From: a virus
Direction: 5' to 3' (one strand)
Virus record (IMG/VR): IMGVR_UViG_3300026097_000008
Location: 1 to 64,000 of that record
Length of the DNA: 64,000 bases
In this document: positions 430-10,944 of the stretch, piece after piece
How the letters are laid out: every line of letters starts with the position of its first letter
How positions within the stretch are numbered: position 1 is the first letter of the stretch
Position numbers and translations under genes: made by a program
The notes under the pieces: model-generated
The model's database searches: none
What the model was told of the DNA's origin: nothing
What the model saw: only the letters and a program-made list of their open reading frames with translations

Positions 430-567
430 TTGTTGAGGGAAATCGATTTATAACCTCTTGTTTTTGCTAGTGTTCTTTCTGTGCCGTTTGTGCATTTTTT
501 AGTTGACAGCAGCACAAACTTGTAGTATAGTGTATATACAAGCTTAAACAATATAGAGGGCACTACT

Positions 568-828
568 ATGCAAACACAAACATACACAAACGCTGTTGCA
601 ACTGTTATTGCGTTTTACGCAAAGCAAATTGCAAACGCAAGCTACGACAGCGTAGCGGAAGCTAACGACTACAGCATAACAGACAACTGCGAAAAAATAC
701 AGTACTTGCTTGCGGAAAGTGCGCAACACACTACTGTGCAAAGTTTAGCAGTTGCCGCGCTTAACAGTGCAGCGGATACAGTAGTACGCGAGTGCATGTA
801 TACACAATTGCAAGCGCAAATTAATTAA
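568..828 (+). CDS. Early hypothetical protein (86 aa)
   Basis: Own promoter; GAGGGC at 556; ATG. Confidence 0.8.
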   Translation: MQTQTYTNAVATVIAFYAKQIANASYDSVAEANDYSITDNCEKIQYLLAESAQHTTVQSLAVAALNSAADTVVRECMYTQLQAQIN

Positions 829-901
829 AAAACACTTGACAACTGCGTGTACATATGCTATAGTGTATGTACACGTTAACAATAGCAAAGAGGGCAAACT
901 T

Positions 902-1078
902 ATGCTAAACAAACTTAGTACGCTTAAAGTTAAAAACGGACGCTATGCGCGAATGCAAGTAATTCGCATTTTGGATAATGCTGTACAGTATAGTGCGCTG
1001 TTTATTAAAAACGACGGCTATACAGAAAAGCGCATTTGCACTGTGCGTAATAACACTGTAGTAGCTTGGCAAAGTTAA
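902..1078 (+). CDS. Early hypothetical protein (58 aa)
   Basis: Promoter at 836; GAGGGC at 890. Start moved to ATG 902. Confidence 0.75.
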   Translation: MLNKLSTLKVKNGRYARMQVIRILDNAVQYSALFIKNDGYTEKRICTVRNNTVVAWQS

Positions 1079-1166
1079 CAAATTAATAGTAAAATACAAT
1101 TGTACATTGTAGCATGTGTGTGCTATAGTATACACGTACACTAACAAATAGCAAAGAGGGCTATAT

Positions 1167-1367
1167 ATGCAAAACACACAAACACTGCTACAACAGTATA
1201 ACAGCACCCGCCGTTTTTTACTTACGCTAAACGAAGCGCAACTGCATTTATTAATAGCTGCATTAGATGACAACAACTGCTTGCAAATAACACAAGCACA
1301 AGTGGACAGCGCATACGACGCAATAGACGAACGCACACGCATGCAATATGCACAACACACAAAATAA
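1167..1367 (+). CDS. Early hypothetical protein (66 aa)
   Basis: Promoter at 1101; GAGGGC at 1156. Confidence 0.8.
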   Translation: MQNTQTLLQQYNSTRRFLLTLNEAQLHLLIAALDDNNCLQITQAQVDSAYDAIDERTRMQYAQHTK

Positions 1368-1450
1368 TTTAAAAAACGGTTGACAGCACAGCAAACTTGT
1401 GCTATAGTATACACATACACTAAACAAACAATTGCAATAGAGGGCAAACT

Positions 1451-1588
1451 ATGCAAAAGCTTTTAAACAAAATTACTTTTTACTTTTTGCAACGTGCGTA
1501 TGCGCAAATGGAAGCAACGGGCGACTTGCAAAACGCAGACGACGTTGCGGAGCACGTAGAAGATTATTTTACATATTTTGTAAAATAA
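1451..1588 (+). CDS. Early hypothetical protein (45 aa, not in ORF track)
   Basis: Promoter at 1380; GAGGGC at 1440; MQKLLNKITF...YFVK*. Confidence 0.75.
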   Translation: MQKLLNKITFYFLQRAYAQMEATGDLQNADDVAEHVEDYFTYFVK

Positions 1589-1663
1589 CACTTGACATGT
1601 GTGTGTACTTGTGCTATAGTATACACACACTAAACAAACAATTGCAAAAATAGAGGGCTATAT

Positions 1664-2005
1664 ATGCAAACAATTAATGATACTACATACGTGCAAGCAC
1701 ATGATGCTGCAAACTTAATTACGTTTTTAGCTACAGAATTAGCTATGTATACAGCACGTGTAAAATACACACACGAAACTATTAATAGTATGTGTGTTAA
1801 ACAATTGTGTGATAATATTGATTTTTTAAACTGTGTATATAACGATTGTGTTAATAACACACAGCAACACGAAATGTTTAGTGTAATTGCTGTGTTATTT
1901 GCAGATGGTTATGCAGATGATATTTTAAACAATAATATATTTGACACGTTTAAAGAATTTTGTGCTATTAATAATTTTGAATATGACGAATACAAATATT
2001 TTTAA
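1664..2005 (+). CDS. Early acidic hypothetical protein (113 aa)
   Basis: Promoter at 1592; GAGGGC at 1653. Confidence 0.8.
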   Translation: MQTINDTTYVQAHDAANLITFLATELAMYTARVKYTHETINSMCVKQLCDNIDFLNCVYNDCVNNTQQHEMFSVIAVLFADGYADDILNNNIFDTFKEFCAINNFEYDEYKYF

Positions 2006-2098
2006 ACACTGTATAAATTAACAGTTGACAAGTGTGTGTATGTGTGCTACAATGTACACATACACTAAACAAACAATTGCAAAAATAGAGGGCTATAT

Positions 2099-2293
2099 AT
2101 GCAAAACAAGTACGCTACGCTTAAAGCACAACTGCTTGCAGTAATTGAAGCAGCAGATGATGCATACGATTTGACTGACGTAGATGAATATGCAGATGCA
2201 AGCAACGAATATGCGCTTGTGCTTGAAGAGATTGTGCAACTGTACGAAGCTGCTGATTTTGATACACAAAGCATTGTGCAAAACGCACTGTAA
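2099..2293 (+). CDS. Early highly acidic protein (64 aa)
   Basis: Promoter at 2025; GAGGGC at 2088; D/E-rich. Confidence 0.8.
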   Translation: MQNKYATLKAQLLAVIEAADDAYDLTDVDEYADASNEYALVLEEIVQLYEAADFDTQSIVQNAL

Positions 2294-2371
2294 AAAATAA
2301 CACTTGACATGTGTGTGCGTGTGTGCTATAGTATACACGTACACTACGCAAACAGCAATAGAGGGCAAACT

Positions 2372-2839
2372 ATGTACACATTTGCAAACACACTGCTTAC
2401 TAAACTTGCGGCATGCGAGCATGTTAACGTTGAACAGCGCGACAGCGAAGAATACGTTGTGACAGTAGACTTAGGCGGCGGCTATGCTGACAAGGACTGG
2501 GAAGGCGGCTACTGGGCTGACACAGTGCGCATTACGGACGAAACGCTAGAATTGCAGTTTAGCGTATTTGGTGGAGACAGCAACTGGAACGCTGACGATG
2601 ACTGCGATTACTGCATAGGCGAAGGCTACGTACACATGCACTACGCAGACTATGGCGAAGGCAACTTAGCATACACAAGTGCATTAGAAGATGCGATTAA
2701 CGATGCTATACAAACACGCACAAATGGCATACTGTATGCAGACGGAAGCGAGCAGGGCATGCAAGGCTACGACAGCGCAGACGAGTGCTATTTAAGTTTA
2801 GACATTGAAGAGTGGTACGAGGAGACTGTGCAAGCATAA
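2372..2839 (+). CDS. Early highly acidic protein (155 aa), possible DNA mimic
   Basis: Promoter at 2304; GAGGGC at 2361; start ATG 2372. Very D/E/Y-rich with few K/R. Confidence 0.8.
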   Translation: MYTFANTLLTKLAACEHVNVEQRDSEEYVVTVDLGGGYADKDWEGGYWADTVRITDETLELQFSVFGGDSNWNADDDCDYCIGEGYVHMHYADYGEGNLAYTSALEDAINDAIQTRTNGILYADGSEQGMQGYDSADECYLSLDIEEWYEETVQA

Positions 2840-2934
2840 AAATAAATTGCACTGCTGTTAAAAAAACACTTGACAGCAGTGCAAACTTGTGCTATAGTGT
2901 AAACATAAACTTAAACAAGCGAGAGGGCTACGCC

Positions 2935-3252
2935 ATGTTTTACGTATACGAGAAAGCAACCACTTATATTATCGGCAAGCAGGGCACACCGGATCATCGT
3001 GCTAGCTACAAGACAATGGCTGCGGCTAAGGCAGCACTCACACGCATTGCAAAGGCGAGTGGCTTAATGCCCGTGGATGAGAACTATCCCCTCTACACAC
3101 TAGGCATTGCAGAAGCTGCCTACTTCCACAAGTCGATTGAAAAGCAAGTCAAGCGAAAGGTGCTTGAGGGCTTTGGCGGCAAGGAATATTACGAACCCAT
3201 CAACACTCCCAACTACTGCTCGCCCAGCTCAGAAAGTTATTGGTCGATGTAA
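2935..3252 (+). CDS. Early hypothetical protein
   Basis: Promoter at 2870; GAGGGC at 2923; ends TPNYCSPSSESYWSM. Confidence 0.85.
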   Translation: MFYVYEKATTYIIGKQGTPDHRASYKTMAAAKAALTRIAKASGLMPVDENYPLYTLGIAEAAYFHKSIEKQVKRKVLEGFGGKEYYEPINTPNYCSPSSESYWSM

Positions 3253-3321
3253 AAAGAGGTTGACAGCGTAGCCGTTTGAGGCTATACTGTATATAACAGT
3301 TAGGCAAACGGAGGGCAATCC

Positions 3322-3564
3322 ATGCAAAACACATTTATAACAGACTACGGTATGTTTACTAGCGCAGGCAACTGTGCTGTGGACGAAATCGTTCGCGAAG
3401 CACGTGAGCTGGCAGGTGTAGACGGGCCAGTTAACCCTGTACAACAGGCCATCAACTACATGCTCAACGAACTGGAGTACCTAGGCAAGGAACACTTCGA
3501 AGAAGCAGAGGACACCGCGGTACGTGAAGCCGCACTGGCAGAGTTCTTCGCAGAGGAGGATTAA
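3322..3564 (+). CDS. Early acidic hypothetical protein
   Basis: Promoter at 3260; GAGGGC at 3311. Confidence 0.85.
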   Translation: MQNTFITDYGMFTSAGNCAVDEIVREARELAGVDGPVNPVQQAINYMLNELEYLGKEHFEEAEDTAVREAALAEFFAEED

Positions 3565-3638
3565 AAAGAGGTTGACAGGGTAGCACTTCGGTGCTACACT
3601 GTATATACAGTTAAGCAATAGCAAAGAGGGTAAACGCT

Positions 3639-3914
3639 ATGAACACAGTCCAAACAGCAATCAACGCAATCCGCAACATGAACAACGATGAGCTGAACCA
3701 GATTATCGAAGCGGTCAAACTCCAACGCACATACCTAGCACGTTCGACAGCAAAGGCTTTGGCTGTTGGTGACACTGTGCAATTTACAGGACGCGGTGGC
3801 AATACAGTGACTGGTACGGTCACAAAGATCAATCGCAAGACAGTGGTAGTAGACGAAGGCTTCACACGCTGGAAGGTGCCAGCTAGCCTGCTGTCTTTAA
3901 CGGAGACTGCATAA
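3639..3914 (+). CDS. Early protein with SH3/KOW-like beta C-terminus
   Basis: LAVGDTVQF...GTVTKINRKTVVV...WKVP pattern; promoter at 3572. Confidence 0.75.
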   Translation: MNTVQTAINAIRNMNNDELNQIIEAVKLQRTYLARSTAKALAVGDTVQFTGRGGNTVTGTVTKINRKTVVVDEGFTRWKVPASLLSLTETA

Positions 3915-4033
3915 TGTATGAAGTCCTACTAAATGGCAAGAGGGTTGCGCTATGCAACTCTCTCCAACTTGCAGAAAGCTATGTTCGATCAACCCCGGGT
4001 GCTACAGTCGTAGGCCCCGCTGCTAGGAGATAA
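3914..4033 (+). CDS. Small hypothetical protein (39 aa)
   Basis: TAATG overlap with upstream gene; GGAG upstream. Confidence 0.5.
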   Translation: MYEVLLNGKRVALCNSLQLAESYVRSTPGATVVGPAARR

Positions 4034-4036
4034 GAT

Positions 4037-4612
4037 ATGCCCAACTGGTGCTACAACAATCTAGACATTACCGCAAAGACACCTGAGCAGATGGAGATGC
4101 TTGATCGTGTGAGCAAGGCAGAAGCCGCGGATGGTTTCATCAGTATGTTCCTTCCGCTGCCTGAGGCACTCAAGGAAACTACAAGCCCTGCACCACAGCC
4201 AGGGCAAGCCAACTACAAAGGCGAACAGCCAGTGGTGGACGGTTTCGACAACTGGTATGACTGGCAAGTGGCCAAGTGGGGAACCAAGTGGGATCCAGAA
4301 GTCATGGACTGTGATTACGATGGCGAAACTCTTACTGTATCGTTCGACTCAGCTTGGGCACCGCCCATTGCGTTCTACGAGTGGTTAGTAGAACAAGGCT
4401 ACGAAGTAAGTGCCAACTACTACGAGCCAGGTATGGACTACGCTGGGGAGTGGGTCAACGGCGATGACTTTATGCTAGAGAATGTGAGCGACCTTGCTCG
4501 CCAGACTGAGGAGTCACTGTCCACTCGCGAGTATGACATCCTCGAGATGTTTGGCATCTTTGAAGAGGTTGCTCAATACGACGAAGAAGAAATGTTAGAC
4601 GACGGTGCATAA
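4037..4612 (+). CDS. YubB/DUF1281-family ferredoxin-like protein
   Basis: MPNWCxN, WYDW...WGTKWD, FDSAWAPP and YYEPG motifs; AGGAG RBS. Confidence 0.8.
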   Translation: MPNWCYNNLDITAKTPEQMEMLDRVSKAEAADGFISMFLPLPEALKETTSPAPQPGQANYKGEQPVVDGFDNWYDWQVAKWGTKWDPEVMDCDYDGETLTVSFDSAWAPPIAFYEWLVEQGYEVSANYYEPGMDYAGEWVNGDDFMLENVSDLARQTEESLSTREYDILEMFGIFEEVAQYDEEEMLDDGA

Positions 4613-4671
4613 AACGGTTGACAAACTGGGCTCTCCTTGCTATACTGTATTCATAGTGAGGAGGGCATCCA

Positions 4672-4809
4672 ATGAAGCAGTCAAAGATCAAAGTTCGCAA
4701 CAAGGCGTTTGGCCAAGCTCGTTCAGAAGGACGACTAGCCGCTCGCGTGGAGCGTGACCGCACCAAGTACCATCGCAAAGAAAAACACAAAAACCGGTTG
4801 ACAGCCTAG
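4672..4809 (+). CDS. Small basic protein, ArfA-like (45 aa, not in ORF track)
   Basis: Promoter at 4618; GAGGGC at 4661; RVERDRTKYHRKEKH. Confidence 0.65.
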   Translation: MKQSKIKVRNKAFGQARSEGRLAARVERDRTKYHRKEKHKNRLTA

Positions 4810-4857
4810 GCACTAGGTGCTATACTTTATATAACAGTTAGGGCATTGGAGGGCAAG

Positions 4858-5145
4858 ATGGCTTATTACACTTACACTAAAGATCCAATCGGGTGCTTCG
4901 TTGAGAAGGACACCGGCAACTATTTCGAATATAGTGACATCGGCGACGATCCTATGATGTACGAAGAAAACGGTGGCTTCACTCACAAGGTATGGGTAGG
5001 CGGCGGTGGCGTATGCGGCGACCAAGGATATCGCTATGCCGTGGTTATGAAGACAGTGGCCCTCATCTGTGTGGATGAAGATGACGAAGGACTTCCGGTA
5101 GTAGAGAAGTGGTACTTGAAAAAGAACACGGAGTATGCGGTATGA
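4858..5145 (+). CDS. Early hypothetical protein
   Basis: Promoter at 4798; GAGGGC at 4849; start ATG 4858. Confidence 0.8.
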   Translation: MAYYTYTKDPIGCFVEKDTGNYFEYSDIGDDPMMYEENGGFTHKVWVGGGGVCGDQGYRYAVVMKTVALICVDEDDEGLPVVEKWYLKKNTEYAV

Positions 5146-5351
5146 GCTTGCAATGTCTTACAGAGACCACAGAGGATCTACTGCCTCACACCTATCTAGT
5201 AGACGAAAAGCGAGGCAAGATGTTGGCCTACCGCAAGAGCTCAGGTGAGATTGATGTCTTCTCCAAGCCACTCTCCTTTGGAAAGAAATACAGAAAGTTC
5301 AAAAAAGTGGTTGACAACGAACTGGTTCGAGCATATACTGTATACAGTTAA
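5142..5351 (+). CDS. Hypothetical protein
   Basis: ATGA overlap; GGAG RBS. Confidence 0.7.
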   Translation: MSLQCLTETTEDLLPHTYLVDEKRGKMLAYRKSSGEIDVFSKPLSFGKKYRKFKKVVDNELVRAYTVYS

Positions 5352-5375
5352 ACAATAAAGCAGAGGGCTTACAAA

Positions 5376-5852
5376 ATGGGTACACGTTCAGCAATTGGTT
5401 ACAAGACTCCAGAAGGCAAGATCCGTGCAAAGTACTGCCACTATGATGGCTACGTTGCACACAACGGACGCATCCTGCAGGAGCACTACCAAGCCGCATA
5501 CAAGATCGCACAGTTGGTAGAACTAGGCGACATGAGCACACTTGACGCAGAGATTGGTGTACAAGTAGACTTTGACGATCGTGACGCACACGAAGGACAG
5601 TGTGTGTTCTATGCTCGCGACAGAGGCGAGACAGGTACAGATGCACAAGAGTTTGACACTGTGCAGGAGTTTGTTGACTACTATGCGTCAGCAGGATGCG
5701 AATACTTCTACTTGCACACAGCCGCAGGTTGGATTGTACATGACCGCTACAATGTAGGCAAAGACTCGTTTGGCTACCCTGTGTTTGACGACTTGGAGAC
5801 TTGTGTGGCGCTTGAAGTGTCACGCCTCAAAGCACAAGGCTACGATATCTAA
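5376..5852 (+). CDS. Conserved phage early protein (MGTRS...YCHYDGY type)
   Basis: Promoter at 5311; GAGGGC at 5364; motif common in phage hypothetical proteins. Confidence 0.85.
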   Translation: MGTRSAIGYKTPEGKIRAKYCHYDGYVAHNGRILQEHYQAAYKIAQLVELGDMSTLDAEIGVQVDFDDRDAHEGQCVFYARDRGETGTDAQEFDTVQEFVDYYASAGCEYFYLHTAAGWIVHDRYNVGKDSFGYPVFDDLETCVALEVSRLKAQGYDI

Positions 5853-5916
5853 AAAGAGGTTGACAGTCCTACGGGGCTGTCATATACTTAATGTAAGAGG
5901 AGTAAATAAGTTTCAA

Positions 5917-5993
5917 GCGCCTGTAGCTCAATTGGTTAGAGCGTCGGACTCATAATCCGGGGGTTGGGGGTTCAAGTCCCTCCGGGCGCACCA
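5917..5993 (+). tRNA. tRNA with CAT anticodon, probably Ile2 (else elongator Met)
   Basis: Cloverleaf; TCGGA-CT-CAT-AA-TCCGG; encoded CCA; paired 1-72; C4-G69/C5-G68 as in TilS substrates. Confidence 0.9.
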
Positions 5994-5997
5994 TATA

Positions 5998-6074
<77 letters not shown>

Positions 6075-6179
6075 AACAACGACAGCGCACCTTAGCAATG
6101 GCGATGAGCTAGGAGATCAAACTGCGACTGTCAGGCTCTGGGACTATTAATAGACTTGCCTGGGGTCGCGCAATCCATT

Positions 6180-6266
6180 GCTCGCGTGGTGGAATTGGTA
6201 GACACAAGGGACTTAAAATCCCTCGCCCCAAAAGGCATGCCGGTTCGAGTCCGGCCGCGAGTACCA
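6180..6266 (+). tRNA. tRNA-Leu(TAA)
   Basis: AGGGA-CT-TAA-AA-TCCCT; long variable arm; GTTCGAGT; CCA. Confidence 0.95.
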
Positions 6267-6269
6267 AGT

Positions 6270-6330
6270 TTGCGGAAGTTGATCTCAGAATGTGCCCTCG
6301 TTCTTAGTAGATCCTTCCGCAATATTTTTT
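6270..6330 (+). ncRNA. Hairpin/terminator displaying GCCCUC in its loop
   Basis: TTGCGGAAG/CTTCCGCAA, GATCT/AGATC and AGAA/TTCT stems; loop TGTGCCCTCG; T-tract follows. Confidence 0.7.
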
Positions 6331-6409
6331 GAAAAAAATGGTTGACAAACCTGGGCATTGGTGGTATACTGTATATAACAGTTAGGAAATAGACATTAGA
6401 GGGCACACT

Positions 6410-6808
6410 ATGTCAATCACACTTCTTCAACACATTGAGTCACTTAACGCACAAGCTGATCTGCTCATGGAGCAGGAGCCAGGCTTGTGGATGAGCAAGT
6501 ACACGGACGACATGAGCCATTGGGCAGACATGGGTGTGTACACTGTGGAGGACTTCAAGCGTAGTCAGTTGATCAATGGTATCTCAGATGCATCAAAGGA
6601 CCTCTACGGTTGCCGCATGCGCCTTGCGTGGGATGAGATGAGCATTGAGCAGATGGAGTCTACATACGAGAACATCTGTGCTCAGTTGAACGCACAGTAT
6701 GAAGAGGAGAAGGCTGCGGCTGAGTGGGAAGCAGAGTGTAAGCGTGGATTGCCAGATGACTGTAAGCCACTGCCCTACGAAGACTACGCATACCTGGAGG
6801 AGGTGTAA
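6410..6808 (+). CDS. Early hypothetical protein
   Basis: Promoter at 6342; GAGGGC at 6399. Confidence 0.85.
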   Translation: MSITLLQHIESLNAQADLLMEQEPGLWMSKYTDDMSHWADMGVYTVEDFKRSQLINGISDASKDLYGCRMRLAWDEMSIEQMESTYENICAQLNAQYEEEKAAAEWEAECKRGLPDDCKPLPYEDYAYLEEV

Positions 6809-6809
6809 G

Positions 6810-6887
6810 ATGGAACTGCTGATCGCATTCACACCCGCACTGGTCATCTTCGTTCCTATGGCGATTGCAATCATGCTTCGCCCGTAA
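6810..6887 (+). CDS. Small membrane peptide (25 aa)
   Basis: GGAGGAGG RBS; MELLIAFTPALVIFVPMAIAIMLRP. Confidence 0.6.
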   Translation: MELLIAFTPALVIFVPMAIAIMLRP

Positions 6888-6959
6888 TTAGGGGTTGACA
6901 AACGATCATTTAGATCATATACTGTATAGACAATGAAGCAAACGATGAGGGCAAACATC

Positions 6960-7118
6960 ATGACAGACTACAGAGATTTCGCAATTGAGTTGGTTGAGGA
7001 TATGGGCTACTCCGCAGAGGATATGCTCACAGCCGCGCTGAAGTATATGAGCCAATCCGACGTTGAAGATATGCTTCGCGTCAACGAGTATCCACAACCT
7101 TGTGAGGAGGAAGTGTAA
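6960..7118 (+). CDS. Small acidic early protein
   Basis: Promoter at 6895; GAGGGC at 6947; start ATG 6960. Confidence 0.75.
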   Translation: MTDYRDFAIELVEDMGYSAEDMLTAALKYMSQSDVEDMLRVNEYPQPCEEEV

Positions 7119-7333
7119 TGGAATACTTCACCACAGTCCGCGCAGAGGTGTATATCACCCTGCGAAGCGAGCGTCCATTGGACCGAGAAGAAGTTCACAC
7201 AGTGCTGAGCGAGATGCACTACGAATTCGGAGACGATGAAGGCTACGGCCTCGACGACGGCGAGAGCACTCACATCTGTGCTACACGCTGGGAAGATAAT
7301 GAAATTACTCATATGAATCGGGAGGACGCATAA
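7118..7333 (+). CDS. Hypothetical protein
   Basis: TAATG coupling; GAGGAGG RBS. Confidence 0.75.
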   Translation: MEYFTTVRAEVYITLRSERPLDREEVHTVLSEMHYEFGDDEGYGLDDGESTHICATRWEDNEITHMNREDA

Positions 7334-7494
7334 TGTTCCAGCAATACTTTGTATACTACGATGGCCGGTTCGCTGGCACTGTGATGGCACTGTCAGAGTC
7401 TAGTGCAAAGGACAAAGGCTGTCAACTCGCAGGTGTAAGCGCAAGTGCATACACTGGTAAGGCTCGAAGATTAGTTGAAGTTGTTCGCAGATAA
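7333..7494 (+). CDS. Hypothetical protein (53 aa, not in ORF track)
   Basis: TAATG coupling; GGAGG RBS. Confidence 0.65.
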   Translation: MFQQYFVYYDGRFAGTVMALSESSAKDKGCQLAGVSASAYTGKARRLVEVVRR

Positions 7495-7556
7495 TGGTTG
7501 ACAAACTTGGATAAGACTGTATACTATTATTAATAGTTAGGACAAACGAGGGCGAT

Positions 7557-8558
7557 ATGCAAAACATTAAAATCACAGAAGGGTACTACAAGATTCGAGG
7601 CAAAGACACATCAGTGGCTGGACTTGTGTTTCCCCTAGTAGAAGAATTTAAAGTAGGCAACAAAGGCGGCTATGTCACAGTAGACGGCCGAGCAATTGCA
7701 GGCTTCCCAGACCGTAATATCAAAATCAGTTGCGGTGGCCCGGAGGACTACGAGCTTGTTGGTGCAGACGTATCAGTCAGCCAGCGAGAAGAGACAGACG
7801 AAGAGATCATTGAGCGCCTGCGAGAGCGTTTCGACATGCTAAAGGAAATGACCAAAGCTGTCAAGAAAGGCGATGTGCGAGCGATGATTGTTTCGGGTCC
7901 TCCGGGCGTAGGTAAGAGTCACGGCGTAGAAGAAGTGCTAGACCGCTACAAGATGATGGAGACACTTGGCGGCACCAAGAAGTACGAAGTCGTCAAAGGT
8001 GCTATGAGCCCGATCGGATTGTACGTAAAGCTTTTCAAATATGCAGACAAAGACAATGTATTGGTGTTCGACGACTGTGATTCAATCTTCGACGAGCCGC
8101 TTGCTCTTAATATTTTAAAAGCTGCGCTTGATAGCAAGAAGACACGTACCATTCACTGGAACACAGATTCATTCAAGTTGCGCAACGAAGGAGTGCCAGA
8201 CAGTTTCAAGTTCGAAGGTAGCTGTATCTTTATTACCAACCTGAAGTTTGATAACGTTAAGAGCAAGAAACTACGTGATCACCTTTCAGCACTAGAGAGC
8301 CGTTGTCACTATATGGATCTTACCATTGACACAGAGCACGAGAAGATGCTCAGAATCAAACAGGTGATCCGCGACGGTATGCTAGATACATATGAGTTCG
8401 ATGAAGAACTCAACGAAGAGATTATCGACTTTGTCGATATAAACAAGAAGCGACTGCGTGAGCTGTCATTAAGAACAGTACTTAAGGTCGCCGACTTGGC
8501 CAAAGCTTTTCCCAGCAATTGGGAGGCGATGGCTGAAAACACTGTGATGTCGCGTTAA
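7557..8558 (+). CDS. AAA+ ATPase
   Basis: Walker A GPPGVGKS, Walker B VLVFDDCD, sensor-1 IFITN, ALESR; promoter at 7498; GAGGGC at 7548. Confidence 0.9.
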   Translation: MQNIKITEGYYKIRGKDTSVAGLVFPLVEEFKVGNKGGYVTVDGRAIAGFPDRNIKISCGGPEDYELVGADVSVSQREETDEEIIERLRERFDMLKEMTKAVKKGDVRAMIVSGPPGVGKSHGVEEVLDRYKMMETLGGTKKYEVVKGAMSPIGLYVKLFKYADKDNVLVFDDCDSIFDEPLALNILKAALDSKKTRTIHWNTDSFKLRNEGVPDSFKFEGSCIFITNLKFDNVKSKKLRDHLSALESRCHYMDLTIDTEHEKMLRIKQVIRDGMLDTYEFDEELNEEIIDFVDINKKRLRELSLRTVLKVADLAKAFPSNWEAMAENTVMSR

Positions 8559-8713
8559 TGCCCTCGACGCTATCACAGTTAATAGATATGATTATTGAGC
8601 AACAGCCCTCACTGCTCTGATCATATCACAAGGTGTCAGATGCAAGCCCTCACGCTCTGCACCGCTCTAGCCCTAGCAGGATGTGCCCTCGTCCAATGCT
8701 AGGGCTTTTTTTT
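8541..8713 (+). ncRNA. Four-hairpin candidate sRNA/3'UTR with GCCCUC loops, ending in an intrinsic terminator
   Basis: GCCCTC at 8560, 8605, 8646 and 8685, each at the apex of a different stem. The last stem, AGCCCTAGCA/TGCTAGGGCT, is followed by a T-run. Confidence 0.8.
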
Positions 8714-8788
8714 GATCTTTTCGGTTGACAGCACTGCTGAGTGGTGCTATAGTATATGTATAGTTAGAACAAACGGAGGGCAATCCAA

Positions 8789-9010
8789 ATGTCAACAGAA
8801 CTTAGAAATGTACCAGGATGTGTAGCACAGAATGAATTGCGTCAGACTCGCTTCTGGGGTGGCAAGAATCGTCAGACCTGTGTACAAGTCACAAACCGCA
8901 ATGGTGAGTTCCTGCAACTGGACAAGTTCCAAGCTCGTGCATTGGCTGTAGAGTTGATGCTGTTCGCAGAAGGTCGTGAAGTTGAAGAATTCGAAATGGA
9001 GGAAGTGTAA
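8789..9010 (+). CDS. Early hypothetical protein
   Basis: Promoter at 8725; GAGGGC at 8776. Confidence 0.8.
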   Translation: MSTELRNVPGCVAQNELRQTRFWGGKNRQTCVQVTNRNGEFLQLDKFQARALAVELMLFAEGREVEEFEMEEV

Positions 9011-9156
9011 TGGACCTTTGGGATCGAGTGATTGAGCAACTGCGCAAAGACATTGAAGAGGGCGAAGTGATGCCCATGTACGAAATGCTTCAGCAGGTGC
9101 CCAAGGATGTGTTGATCGCATACTTGCCGGAAGAGGAAGCAGCAGATGTTGGATGA
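9010..9156 (+). CDS. Small acidic hypothetical protein (48 aa)
   Basis: TAATG coupling; GGAGG RBS. Confidence 0.6.
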   Translation: MDLWDRVIEQLRKDIEEGEVMPMYEMLQQVPKDVLIAYLPEEEAADVG

Positions 9157-9247
9157 TCCATGTGATGATTGGTCGCAATTAGGGGTTGACAAAGCACACA
9201 AGTGATGGTATACTGTATATAACAGTTAGGGCAAAGAGGGAATACAA

Positions 9248-9427
9248 ATGCATATCAACGACATCTACGCATTGCGCACAGAGTTAGCCAAAGTATTATG
9301 CAACGAATCTGTGGACCGCACAGCCATCCGTGCATTGTTAAGTGCCGCACAAGAAGAGATCACAGAGTTCGAGAAGTACATGGAACAACGAGCACTTGAA
9401 GAAGAAGCACGGGAGTACGCAGAATGA
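9248..9427 (+). CDS. Hypothetical protein (59 aa)
   Basis: Promoter at 9186; GAGGGA upstream. Confidence 0.7.
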   Translation: MHINDIYALRTELAKVLCNESVDRTAIRALLSAAQEEITEFEKYMEQRALEEEAREYAE

Positions 9428-9534
9428 CACAGTACAACGAGAAGGCAGTAGACGAGGCAATCAAACGTGATCCTCGTATCAAAGGCAAAGAAGCCAAGCT
9501 GATCAAAGCACTATTGAAAGGTCGCAAACAATGA
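9424..9534 (+). CDS. Small basic protein (36 aa)
   Basis: ATGA overlaps at both ends; GGAG RBS. Confidence 0.6.
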   Translation: MTQYNEKAVDEAIKRDPRIKGKEAKLIKALLKGRKQ

Positions 9535-9806
9535 ACCAAACATATTTTGAAGCAACCCCGCAACAGAAGAAGCTGGCAGACATCGGACGAGCCATGATGG
9601 ACTTCTCCGAAGAGTACGGTAAGATCCACGGATTGAAAGCTGTCACAGACGACGGCCTGCGCACTCTCAACAACCTCAGCCAAGTAGGCTATATGCTGAC
9701 CACAGTTGGGGCTACCTTTGGTAAAAACTCTAAGAGCTTCTCAGAGGACGAGAAGAAATTAATTGCAGATTTCATTAACAAAAAGGTTGACATCGAGCGC
9801 AAGTGA
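9531..9806 (+). CDS. Hypothetical protein
   Basis: ORF coupled to the upstream gene. Confidence 0.75.
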   Translation: MNQTYFEATPQQKKLADIGRAMMDFSEEYGKIHGLKAVTDDGLRTLNNLSQVGYMLTTVGATFGKNSKSFSEDEKKLIADFINKKVDIERK

Positions 9807-9847
9807 TGGTATACTGTATATAACAGTTAGGGCAAAGGGCAAATACT

Positions 9848-10090
9848 ATGAAGCGCGATACACTGATCAAAAACCTAAACTCCAAGTTTAACCTTAACGC
9901 TGTTCCTTCAGAAGAGTGGGACGGTGCTGAAGGCGGCATTTGGATCCGCGACAACATCTGCAAGCCGGAAACAGACTACTACCCATATGCGGATGGCACT
10001 ATGCAGGACAACAAGTTGAATCGCTACTTGCGCAAGGCGGGTTGGTTTGCTGAGCCGTACGACAGCGAAACAATAATGATTTGGAAATAA
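9848..10090 (+). CDS. Early hypothetical protein
   Basis: Promoter at 9787; AGGGC occurs twice in the leader. Confidence 0.8.
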   Translation: MKRDTLIKNLNSKFNLNAVPSEEWDGAEGGIWIRDNICKPETDYYPYADGTMQDNKLNRYLRKAGWFAEPYDSETIMIWK

Positions 10091-10156
10091 GAGGTTGACA
10101 AGTGCCAAGGATGGCACTATACTTTATTAAACAGTTAAGCAAAAGAGGGCAAACTA

Positions 10157-10429
10157 ATGCGCACACTTAAAAACTTCATACAAGACAACAACCGCTGGAT
10201 GGCACTGTTCGGCAAGGCGGACATGACTTTCCCACTTACACAATCAGATGTAGATGACTTAGCACGTACACTAGACGCCAAGCTATCACCTGAGAACCTA
10301 CACTGCGATGGAGAGATCACTGTAGCAGAAGCCAATCGCAAGTACAACCGTTTGGCAACAACCTATCGCGAGCTGTGTGAGTACTGCGACTCAAAAGGCT
10401 TGCGTGAACCAACTGTATACGAACTCTAA
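10157..10429 (+). CDS. Early hypothetical protein (LSPENLHCDGE motif)
   Basis: Promoter at 10095; GAGGGC at 10145. Confidence 0.85.
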   Translation: MRTLKNFIQDNNRWMALFGKADMTFPLTQSDVDDLARTLDAKLSPENLHCDGEITVAEANRKYNRLATTYRELCEYCDSKGLREPTVYEL

Positions 10430-10498
10430 GAGGTTGACAAACAGTCAGCTTGAGCATATACTGTATAGACAATGAAGCAAACACAGAGGGCAAACTGT

Positions 10499-10840
10499 AT
10501 GAACATTCAAGAACTTAAGAACATCCTAGTTGAAGCACAGAACGCGGCAACAGCCAAGAGCATGGAAATGTATACTCAACACGGCGACGGTTGGGCATGT
10601 GGCTTTGCTTGGGTAAACATCTACAAGCATGAAGGCAAAGCAATCAAAGGCAACACCAAGCTGGGCAAGCTGCTCAAGCAAGCGGGTGTGCGTCAAGACT
10701 ACACACGAGCATTCCAGGTGTGGGGTGGTGAGTGGTACAACGGACAGAGCATTGACATCAAGGAAGCTGGTGCTAGGGCTTATGCAGATGTGCTCAAGCG
10801 TTATGGCTTCGAAGCTTACGCAGGCAGCAGACTAGACTAA
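10499..10840 (+). CDS. Conserved phage protein (CGFAWV motif)
   Basis: Promoter at 10434; GAGGGC at 10486; start ATG 10499. Confidence 0.85.
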   Translation: MNIQELKNILVEAQNAATAKSMEMYTQHGDGWACGFAWVNIYKHEGKAIKGNTKLGKLLKQAGVRQDYTRAFQVWGGEWYNGQSIDIKEAGARAYADVLKRYGFEAYAGSRLD

Positions 10841-10863
10841 CTGTTAAGCAACACTTAATAGTT

Positions 10864-10944
10864 GAGAGGTAGTCAAATGATTTGGCTACCTTTTTTATGC
10901 ACAACACACAGTCAAAAAAAAGCACAGCCCAAATGCTGTGCTTG
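10864..10944. terminator. Convergent intrinsic terminators
   Basis: AGGTAGTCAAA/TTTGGCTACCT plus T-run on +. A-run followed by AAGCACAGC/GCTGTGCTT for the - strand. Confidence 0.75.

Follow-up and report, generated by a model that had tools for sequence, protein, structure and literature searches.

A probable terminator hairpin at the end of a giant-phage tRNA operon carries the complement of the early-gene ribosome-binding-site tag

Introduction

The locus described here raises the question of whether the hairpin that directly follows the tRNA genes of a giant phage does nothing more than end their transcript, or whether it also acts, as an RNA, on the translation of other genes. The hairpin lies in a window of 64,000 nt, the whole stretch of DNA analyzed, which is the first 64 kb of the 154,976-base IMG/VR record IMGVR_UViG_3300026097_000008 (completeness estimate, 44%). 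The record derives from an uncultured marine giant phage, and its tail sheath, DnaB-like helicase, and DNA polymerase place it among the jumbo myoviruses as distant kin of PA5oct, Atu_ph07, and RaK2. In a DNA-level search of GenBank phages, the tRNAs alone matched and no cultured close relative was found, and among public runs the window sequence is listed for DNA metagenome contigs only. The sequence-only reading of the window had singled out the hairpin as a possible source of an RNA directed against GAGGGC, the tag found at the ribosome-binding sites (RBSs) of the early genes.

Results

The tag and the genes that carry it are found in the following part of the window.

556..10491, + strand: early block, with 21 near-consensus promoters and GAGGGC 3-8 nt before the ATG in the first gene behind most of them
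6399..6404, + strand: GAGGGC tag taken as an example target, 5 nt before the ATG at 6410 and one of the 18 RBS-placed tags

The early block spans about 0.5-10.9 kb, and its 21 sigma70 promoters (TTGACA-17-TATACT/TATAGT) are mostly followed by one or two short ORFs, while in the rest of the window the G+C content is lower and transcription is mainly from the - strand. On the + strand, 556-10491 contains 20 copies of GAGGGC, of which 18 are placed as an RBS, with an ATG 3-8 nt further on. In the remaining 144 kb of the record, there is a single + strand copy and there are five - strand copies, and by context none of these is RBS-placed. Seventeen of the 21 consensus promoters lead to GAGGGC and three to the one-base variants GAGGGT, GAGGGA, and AAGGGC; the remaining promoter drives the tRNA operon, and its leader is without such a tag. 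The 18th RBS-placed copy, at 1156, lies behind a weaker promoter. Genes elsewhere, including late genes, have weak ordinary AAGGA/AGGAG sites, and in relatives of 262 and 275 kb, GAGGGC-N5-ATG is likewise confined to a single block of 7-8.5 kb on one strand. As a sequence, GAGGGC reads as a GAGG Shine-Dalgarno (SD) core with an invariant, private GC extension, and judging from the standard anti-SD sequence, this GC would be unable to pair with the canonical 16S tail. The G+C content is 46-49% in the early block (window 2001-10000) versus 33-39% in the structural and replication region (18001-40000), and 37% in the very first 2 kb of the window.

The untagged transcript, the tRNA operon, is made up as follows.

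5860..5888, + strand: tRNA-operon promoter, sigma70 type (TTGACA-17-TATACT), with no GAGGGC in the leader behind it
5917..5993, + strand: tRNA-Met (CAT), on which ARAGORN and Rfam agree
5998..6074, + strand: tRNA-Arg (TCT), on which ARAGORN and Rfam agree
6180..6266, + strand: tRNA-Leu (TAA), on which ARAGORN and Rfam agree, with an encoded CCA at 6264-6266
6270..6322, + strand: trailer stem-loop, with a 9-bp outer stem, an internal loop, an inner stem, and an apex, from RNAfold and stem covariation
6294..6299, + strand: apical GCCCUC, complementary by sequence to the early-gene tag GAGGGC
6325..6330, + strand: T-run finishing the intrinsic terminator, six T residues beginning 2 nt past the stem
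6342..6370, + strand: next early promoter, serving a separate transcript for the ORF at 6410-6808

The interrupted stem, loop, and T-tract that had been noticed 3 nt past the CCA of tRNA-Leu are all confirmed. The spacer between CCA and hairpin is AGT (6267-6269), the stem has the sequence TTGCGGAAG..GATCTC.AGAA / TTCT..AGATC.CTTCCGCAA, and the hairpin has a predicted energy of -23.0 kcal/mol, compared with -10.6 ± 2.4 kcal/mol in 200 shuffles (z -5.1), none of which folded as well. The minimum free energy (MFE) structure has the loop UGCCCU and places the final C of the motif in a weak closing pair. The transcription unit thus ends in a stable, GC-containing stem-loop with a U-run directly behind it, which is the anatomy of an intrinsic terminator, and as the operon has its own promoter, a strong stem, and T6, with the next promoter only at 6342, the hairpin is very probably the Rho-independent terminator of the Met-Arg-Leu tRNA operon. 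A simple terminator scanner missed it because the stem is interrupted. Three convincing terminators of stem and T-run are found on the + strand of 500-10,900, and two of them contain GCCCUC. Searches of Rfam, at gathering scores and at E ≤ 1, returned the three tRNAs and chance matches only, leaving the hairpins without a family. Two ORFs across the hairpin (6156-6332, +; 6131-6406, -) were rejected as spurious, since they overlap tRNA-Leu. The spacer between tRNA-Arg and tRNA-Leu is 105 nt long (window 6075-6179; also L018, 4136-4240), compared with 2-12 nt in most relatives, and neither an ORF nor an Rfam match nor a folding signal (z -0.5) was found in it.

The second GCCCUC terminator of the early block is the last hairpin of a larger structure.

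8541..8713, + strand: main array of four tandem hairpins behind the AAA-like ATPase ORF 7557-8558 (-67.5 kcal/mol, z -6.55)

The apices of the array carry GCCCUC at 8560, 8605, 8646, and 8685, and the fourth hairpin serves as its terminator. The trailer had been described as a fifth hairpin of this kind, and a scan of the record for GCCCTC hairpins agrees with that count: five of the six copies on the + strand of the early region are hairpin apices, one lies within an ORF, and no early-region hairpin accounts for any of the other GCCCTC copies in the 155-kb record. When the trailer and the array were compared with the 155-kb record (44% complete) by blastn-short, chance matches of 9-13 nt were all that was returned, with neither an sRNA-like partner nor a mirror copy of the hairpins among them. 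Two scans of IMG/VR with the AAA-like ATPase that lies ahead of the array yielded 65 loci and then about 27 more. In 62 of the 65 relatives from the first scan, two to five GCCCTC copies at a spacing of 35-50 nt lie directly 3' of the ATPase gene, and the relatives have many GAGGGC-N3-10-ATG sites on the array strand and almost none on the opposite strand. The motif is apical in the MFE fold for 129 of 142 distinct array copies, mostly within 7-nt loops of the form N-GCCCUC; N is U in 56% of the loops, and where it is, the base that follows the tag in the RBS is A in 75%. Among cultured phages, the ATPase has its nearest homologue in PA5oct gp126 (44% identity), whose gene has no hairpin array behind it, and more distant relatives lack the array as well.

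The trailer loop is closely related to one of the array loops. As had been remarked, the loop region matches that of the fourth array hairpin on an unrelated stem: the 12 nt ATGTGCCCTCGT occur both at 6290-6301 and at 8681-8692, the inner stems resemble each other, and the inner 12-18 nt are almost identical, while the outer stems differ. Because of this near identity, the trailer motif may be a recent copy that has not been selected for long at its present site. It is also what would be expected if the trailer were a terminator only, in which case GCCCUC would have arrived when a piece of array hairpin 4 was duplicated and would be functionless here. The relatives bear on this reading from both sides. 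The comparison set consisted of 30 distinct class I loci with a tRNA cluster, among which the order of the tRNAs varies, and a GCCCUC hairpin was found within 130 nt after the last tRNA (Leu, Met, or Arg) in 14 of them. In total, the 30 trailers (about 3.9 kb) contain 15 copies of GCCCTC, compared with about one expected by chance across all of them, so the occurrence of the motif in trailers is well beyond chance, which had originally been argued from the existence of a second, independent locus in the window. Free variation of the loop among homologous tRNA clusters, named beforehand as the observation that would speak against the proposed role, was not found; it is the stems that differ in sequence, with at least three architectures, and the loop that is constant. 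In an alignment of ten trailers, 87% of the cells of the outer helix are paired versus 68% in shuffles, the covariation score of the outer stem is 0.58 versus 0.245 (0 of 500 shuffles as high; slid controls ≤0.23), and 7 of the 10 outer-stem pairs show compensatory changes. Retention of the motif in 14 distinct lineages from all four main subclades, on covarying stems and with different tRNAs ahead, thus argues against a terminator with a functionless loop.

On the other side, the trailer copy turns over quickly and is missing from 16 of the 30 clusters, with at least six to seven gains or losses on the ATPase tree, and L043 and L044 differ in whether they have it even though their ATPases are nearly identical. 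It is clear from this distribution that the trailer copy is dispensable. Other relatives end the tRNA operon without the motif, L043 with a plain terminator and L009 without one, and therefore GCCCUC is not needed for termination. Taken together, these data make the trailer element an accessory copy of the main array and not a core component, and we regard the terminator-only explanation as rather unlikely.

Several other hairpins were seen behind the tRNAs of relatives. The trailer of L056 has two loops in a branched structure. The trailer hairpin of L030 (3238-3300) shares the outer architecture of the one in the window (GCAGGAG..GATC / GATCCTCCTGC), its loop is without GCCCTC, and the early tags of L030 are mostly GAGGGA/GAGGGT. 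Hairpins of a third type, GGCGGGAGAG-stem-GCCCUC-nnAGAAAGG-stem, mostly with a T-run, lie both downstream of tRNAs and at other places in the early block (L022, 1800-1860; L024, 760-820; L034, 5250-5310; L040, 1040-1100; L060, 1320-1390). No anti-RBS hairpin follows the tRNAs in classes II and III, which have a small hairpin, GUUGUA...UACAAC, in this place; in class II, it is conserved as GUUGUA-N3-4-UACAAC (L063, 1413-1432; L078, 2215-2234; L079, L082, L085, and L086).

The comparison of tags and loops among the classes is most informative for the question of pairing. In class II (L063/64, L078-L089, L101, L102, and L105), the promoter-linked RBS is (A)GGAGCGA and the array loops are UUCGCUCC; GAUUCGCUCCC is found in the two hairpins behind the ATPase gene, and UCGCUCC is the reverse complement of GGAGCGA. 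In L099, 23 of the 28 promoter-linked sites are GGAGCA, mostly GGAGCAA, and all three loops are UUGCUCC, so that the G-to-A change in the tag is matched by a C-to-U change in every loop. Smaller shifts occur within class I, as L049 has mostly AAGGGCA sites and an array terminator loop UGCCCUU (about 7220-7250), and L030 has GAGGGA(A) sites and one array loop UUCCCUC (about 4770-4790). At this fine scale, the association between loop variants and RBS variants is weak, with p about 0.02 each from few loci and uncorrected for relatedness, and we place no weight on it. The joint switching of tag and loop between classes gives strong comparative support, and the strongest available here, to the pairing of loop and RBS, and together with the constant loop and covarying stems it argues strongly for the anti-GAGGGC reading originally proposed for the hairpin. 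Predicted duplexes between loop and leader point the same way, at -12 to -18 kcal/mol for early genes versus about -6 kcal/mol for others. Loop and tag probably pair functionally in this phage family.

The same data bear on two readings in which the complementarity would be indirect or incidental. Multi-hairpin RNAs with a repeated loop motif, such as CsrB and RsmZ, are typical protein sponges, and the loops described here could similarly bind, or act as decoys for, an RNA-binding protein from the phage or the host; the constant position of the array behind the same AAA-like ATPase gene would fit such a function. However, a protein site gives no reason for complementarity, still less for complementary changes of tag and loop in three classes, including a single G-to-A answered by C-to-U, and we consider this reading very improbable. 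Searches of the 44%-complete record for the Hfq and RegB families gave no match, although the RegB control matched in no genome. Alternatively, GAGGGC and GCCCTC could be a signal at the DNA level, for example a site for a DNA-binding or DNA-modifying protein, and the fairly fixed distance between the tag and the -10 box, mostly 19-25 nt, could be read in this way. The strict strand bias and RBS placement of the tag, as well as the display of its complement in apical loops of covarying stems with U-runs behind them, make a DNA signal extremely improbable, and here, too, complementary changes of tag and loop would be left without a reason.

If loop and tag pair, the partners of the trailer loop must be sought on other transcripts. 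An extended form of the loop, UGUGCCCUC, is complementary to GAGGGCACA at 6399-6407, in the adjacent downstream gene about 105 nt away, and this 9-nt match is the longest in the window (predicted duplex, -18.3 kcal/mol). It would allow a cis arrangement in which read-through transcripts have the next RBS blocked by the loop and mRNAs initiated at the promoter alone are translated. However, the distant RBS of ORF 7557 gives a predicted duplex of equal strength, and the stem and U6 should give efficient termination. Across relatives, the RBS next downstream is not favored over other sites in extended complementarity (6.58 versus 6.64 nt for 12 trailer motifs; 6.74 versus 6.73 nt for 86 array loops), and the cis model was rejected on these grounds; we consider it quite improbable. 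GAGGGC is absent from the tRNA transcript itself, so that the trailer copy, if it acts on the tag, must do so in trans, and because the transcript lacks both ORF and tag, contact between the 5' and 3' ends of one mRNA is not available to the trailer loop. For the array, unlike the trailer, contact with the 5' leader of the mRNA that carries it would in principle be possible.

Discussion

The absence of a tag from the tRNA transcript, together with the comparative evidence for pairing, leads us to favor, with somewhat better than even confidence, a trailer copy that acts as a released trans-acting RNA and helps to control early translation. In this scheme, host RNA polymerase would transcribe the tRNA operon early, and RNase P and 3' processing would free the tRNAs. 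Promoters of the sigma70 type and the kinship with jumbo phages point to a marine proteobacterium as the host. In proteobacteria, as established for E. coli, RNase E cuts immediately downstream of the CCA, and exonucleases then trim the 3' end. A similar sequence of events in the phage-infected cell would leave a terminator-capped trailer of about 60 nt (about 6267-6331) as a stable RNA, although tRNA trailers are usually degraded quickly, which counts against its stability. The loop of the trailer (GCCCUC or UGCCCUC) would then bind GAGGGC(A) on early leaders in competition with the 16S anti-SD sequence, with the four-loop RNA from the 3' untranslated region (UTR) of the ATPase gene joining it in occluding early SD sequences in trans. 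As these RNAs accumulate, translation of the early class would be damped or shut off, and late genes with AAGGA/AGGAG sites would be untouched. We infer release by processing, stability, and pairing in vivo. Repression is the most likely direction of the effect, but it is a guess made by analogy with RNAs that occlude SD sequences, as the sequence itself does not constrain direction, and the generic complementarity of loop and tag amounts to only 6-7 nt.

The closest parallel in location is the E. coli 3'ETS-leuZ, the trailer of glyW-cysT-leuZ, which is summarized in a preprint as a sponge of the sRNAs RyhB and RybB (bioRxiv 10.1101/2021.04.25.441314). As summarized there, 3'ETS-leuZ resembles the phage trailer in its origin, a tRNA-operon 3' external transcribed spacer that directly follows tRNA-Leu (bioRxiv 10.1101/2021.04.25.441314), and it likewise ends in the operon terminator hairpin with a U tail. 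It base-pairs in trans, which is only predicted for the phage. The phage trailer lies between the last tRNA and the end of the terminator, with the terminator included, and it thus has the position of a 3'ETS. It differs from 3'ETS-leuZ in that the latter uses a single-stranded stretch and needs Hfq, whereas the phage element would present a hairpin loop to about 18 predicted mRNA RBSs; the two have no sequence relation, and release by RNase E is described for 3'ETS-leuZ. The phage trailer is not a sponge of sRNAs in this sense, as its predicted partners are mRNA leaders with GAGGGC and the 155-kb record yielded no sRNA-like partner.

In their architecture, the array and its relatives resemble the Cuckoo/CcsR RNAs of Alphaproteobacteria (RSs0680, SmelC397, and others), which have two to four adjacent hairpins with the loop motif CCUCCUCCC (PMC4615179). 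Like these, the phage array is modular, with highly variable stems and one invariant C-rich loop resembling an anti-SD sequence (PMC4615179). Two to four hairpins with a shared loop are present in the array at 8541-8713 and in relatives, and the trailer is a single hairpin. The phage loops are (U)GCCCUC rather than CCUCCUCCC, and Rfam gave no match even at E ≤ 1; Cuckoo/CcsR genes are chromosomal and stress-induced, with no known matching private tag on a whole gene class and no known tRNA-trailer copy. The proposed mode of action is closer to that of the S. aureus RNAIII hairpins and RsaE, in which UCCC loops pair with mRNA SD sequences and block translation initiation (PMC2790875, PMC2837412). 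As in those RNAs, where one molecule bears several such loops, an apical C-rich motif of the phage hairpins (GCCCUC) is complementary to the G-rich SD region of several mRNAs (GAGGGC). RNAIII and RsaE differ in being host encoded, in acting on the ordinary SD sequences of selected mRNAs, and in making added contacts, and they have neither a co-evolving tag nor an origin in a tRNA operon.

Among phages, the T4 endoribonuclease RegB inactivates early mRNAs through GGAG in their SD regions (PMC3014915). The phage hairpins are predicted to be a comparable device against early mRNAs as a class, although RegB is a protein nuclease and not an antisense RNA. Small phage RNAs excised from longer transcripts by tRNA-processing enzymes are also known, namely the c4 antisense RNA of P1/P7 and the CI RNA of P4, the loops of which pair with sites that include an RBS. 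They differ from the element described here in that they control immunity at one or two sites, belong to temperate elements, and lie outside tRNA operons, while the phage tag marks a class of about 20 early genes.

Should the pairing be real, phages would be able to mark an entire temporal class of genes with a private RBS tag and control it through one small RNA, an RNA counterpart of T4 RegB/RegA. The tRNA-trailer copy would be the most informative piece of such a system, as its transcript is neither protein-coding nor tagged, which leaves action in trans only. It would also be the second natural regulator from a tRNA-operon trailer after the E. coli 3'ETS-leuZ and, as far as the literature searched shows, the first in a virus; in that search, no paper was found that combined GAGGGC with phage and Shine-Dalgarno, nor any description of such a tag and loop system. 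More broadly, we tentatively propose, as a possibility that we hold at somewhat below even confidence, that a family of giant phages from marine and freshwater environments uses a private, co-evolving code of tag and anti-tag, with the anti-tag supplied from both an mRNA 3' UTR and a tRNA trailer, and that host tRNA processing thereby makes a class-wide timer for early genes that spares late and host messages. The three classes of tag and loop would provide ready-made orthogonal pairs for synthetic translational control and for compensatory-mutation tests.

Two further features of the early block were observed. In window 481-2930, which contains the first seven early genes, the + coding strand has 1 TC versus 112 expected and 5 CC versus 83 expected, and neighboring early stretches, unlike this one, show mild depletion only; this extreme, strand-specific avoidance of YC dinucleotides may reflect an avoided nuclease or deaminase context or avoided self-pairing with the G-rich tag. 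Finally, a palindrome, CTGTATATAACAG(TTAGG), lies behind many early promoters, where it overlaps the -10 box and the start site (window 3288-3302, 6370-6384, 9214-9228, 9815-9829, and others), and it may be an operator or a stem-loop at the 5' end of the leader.
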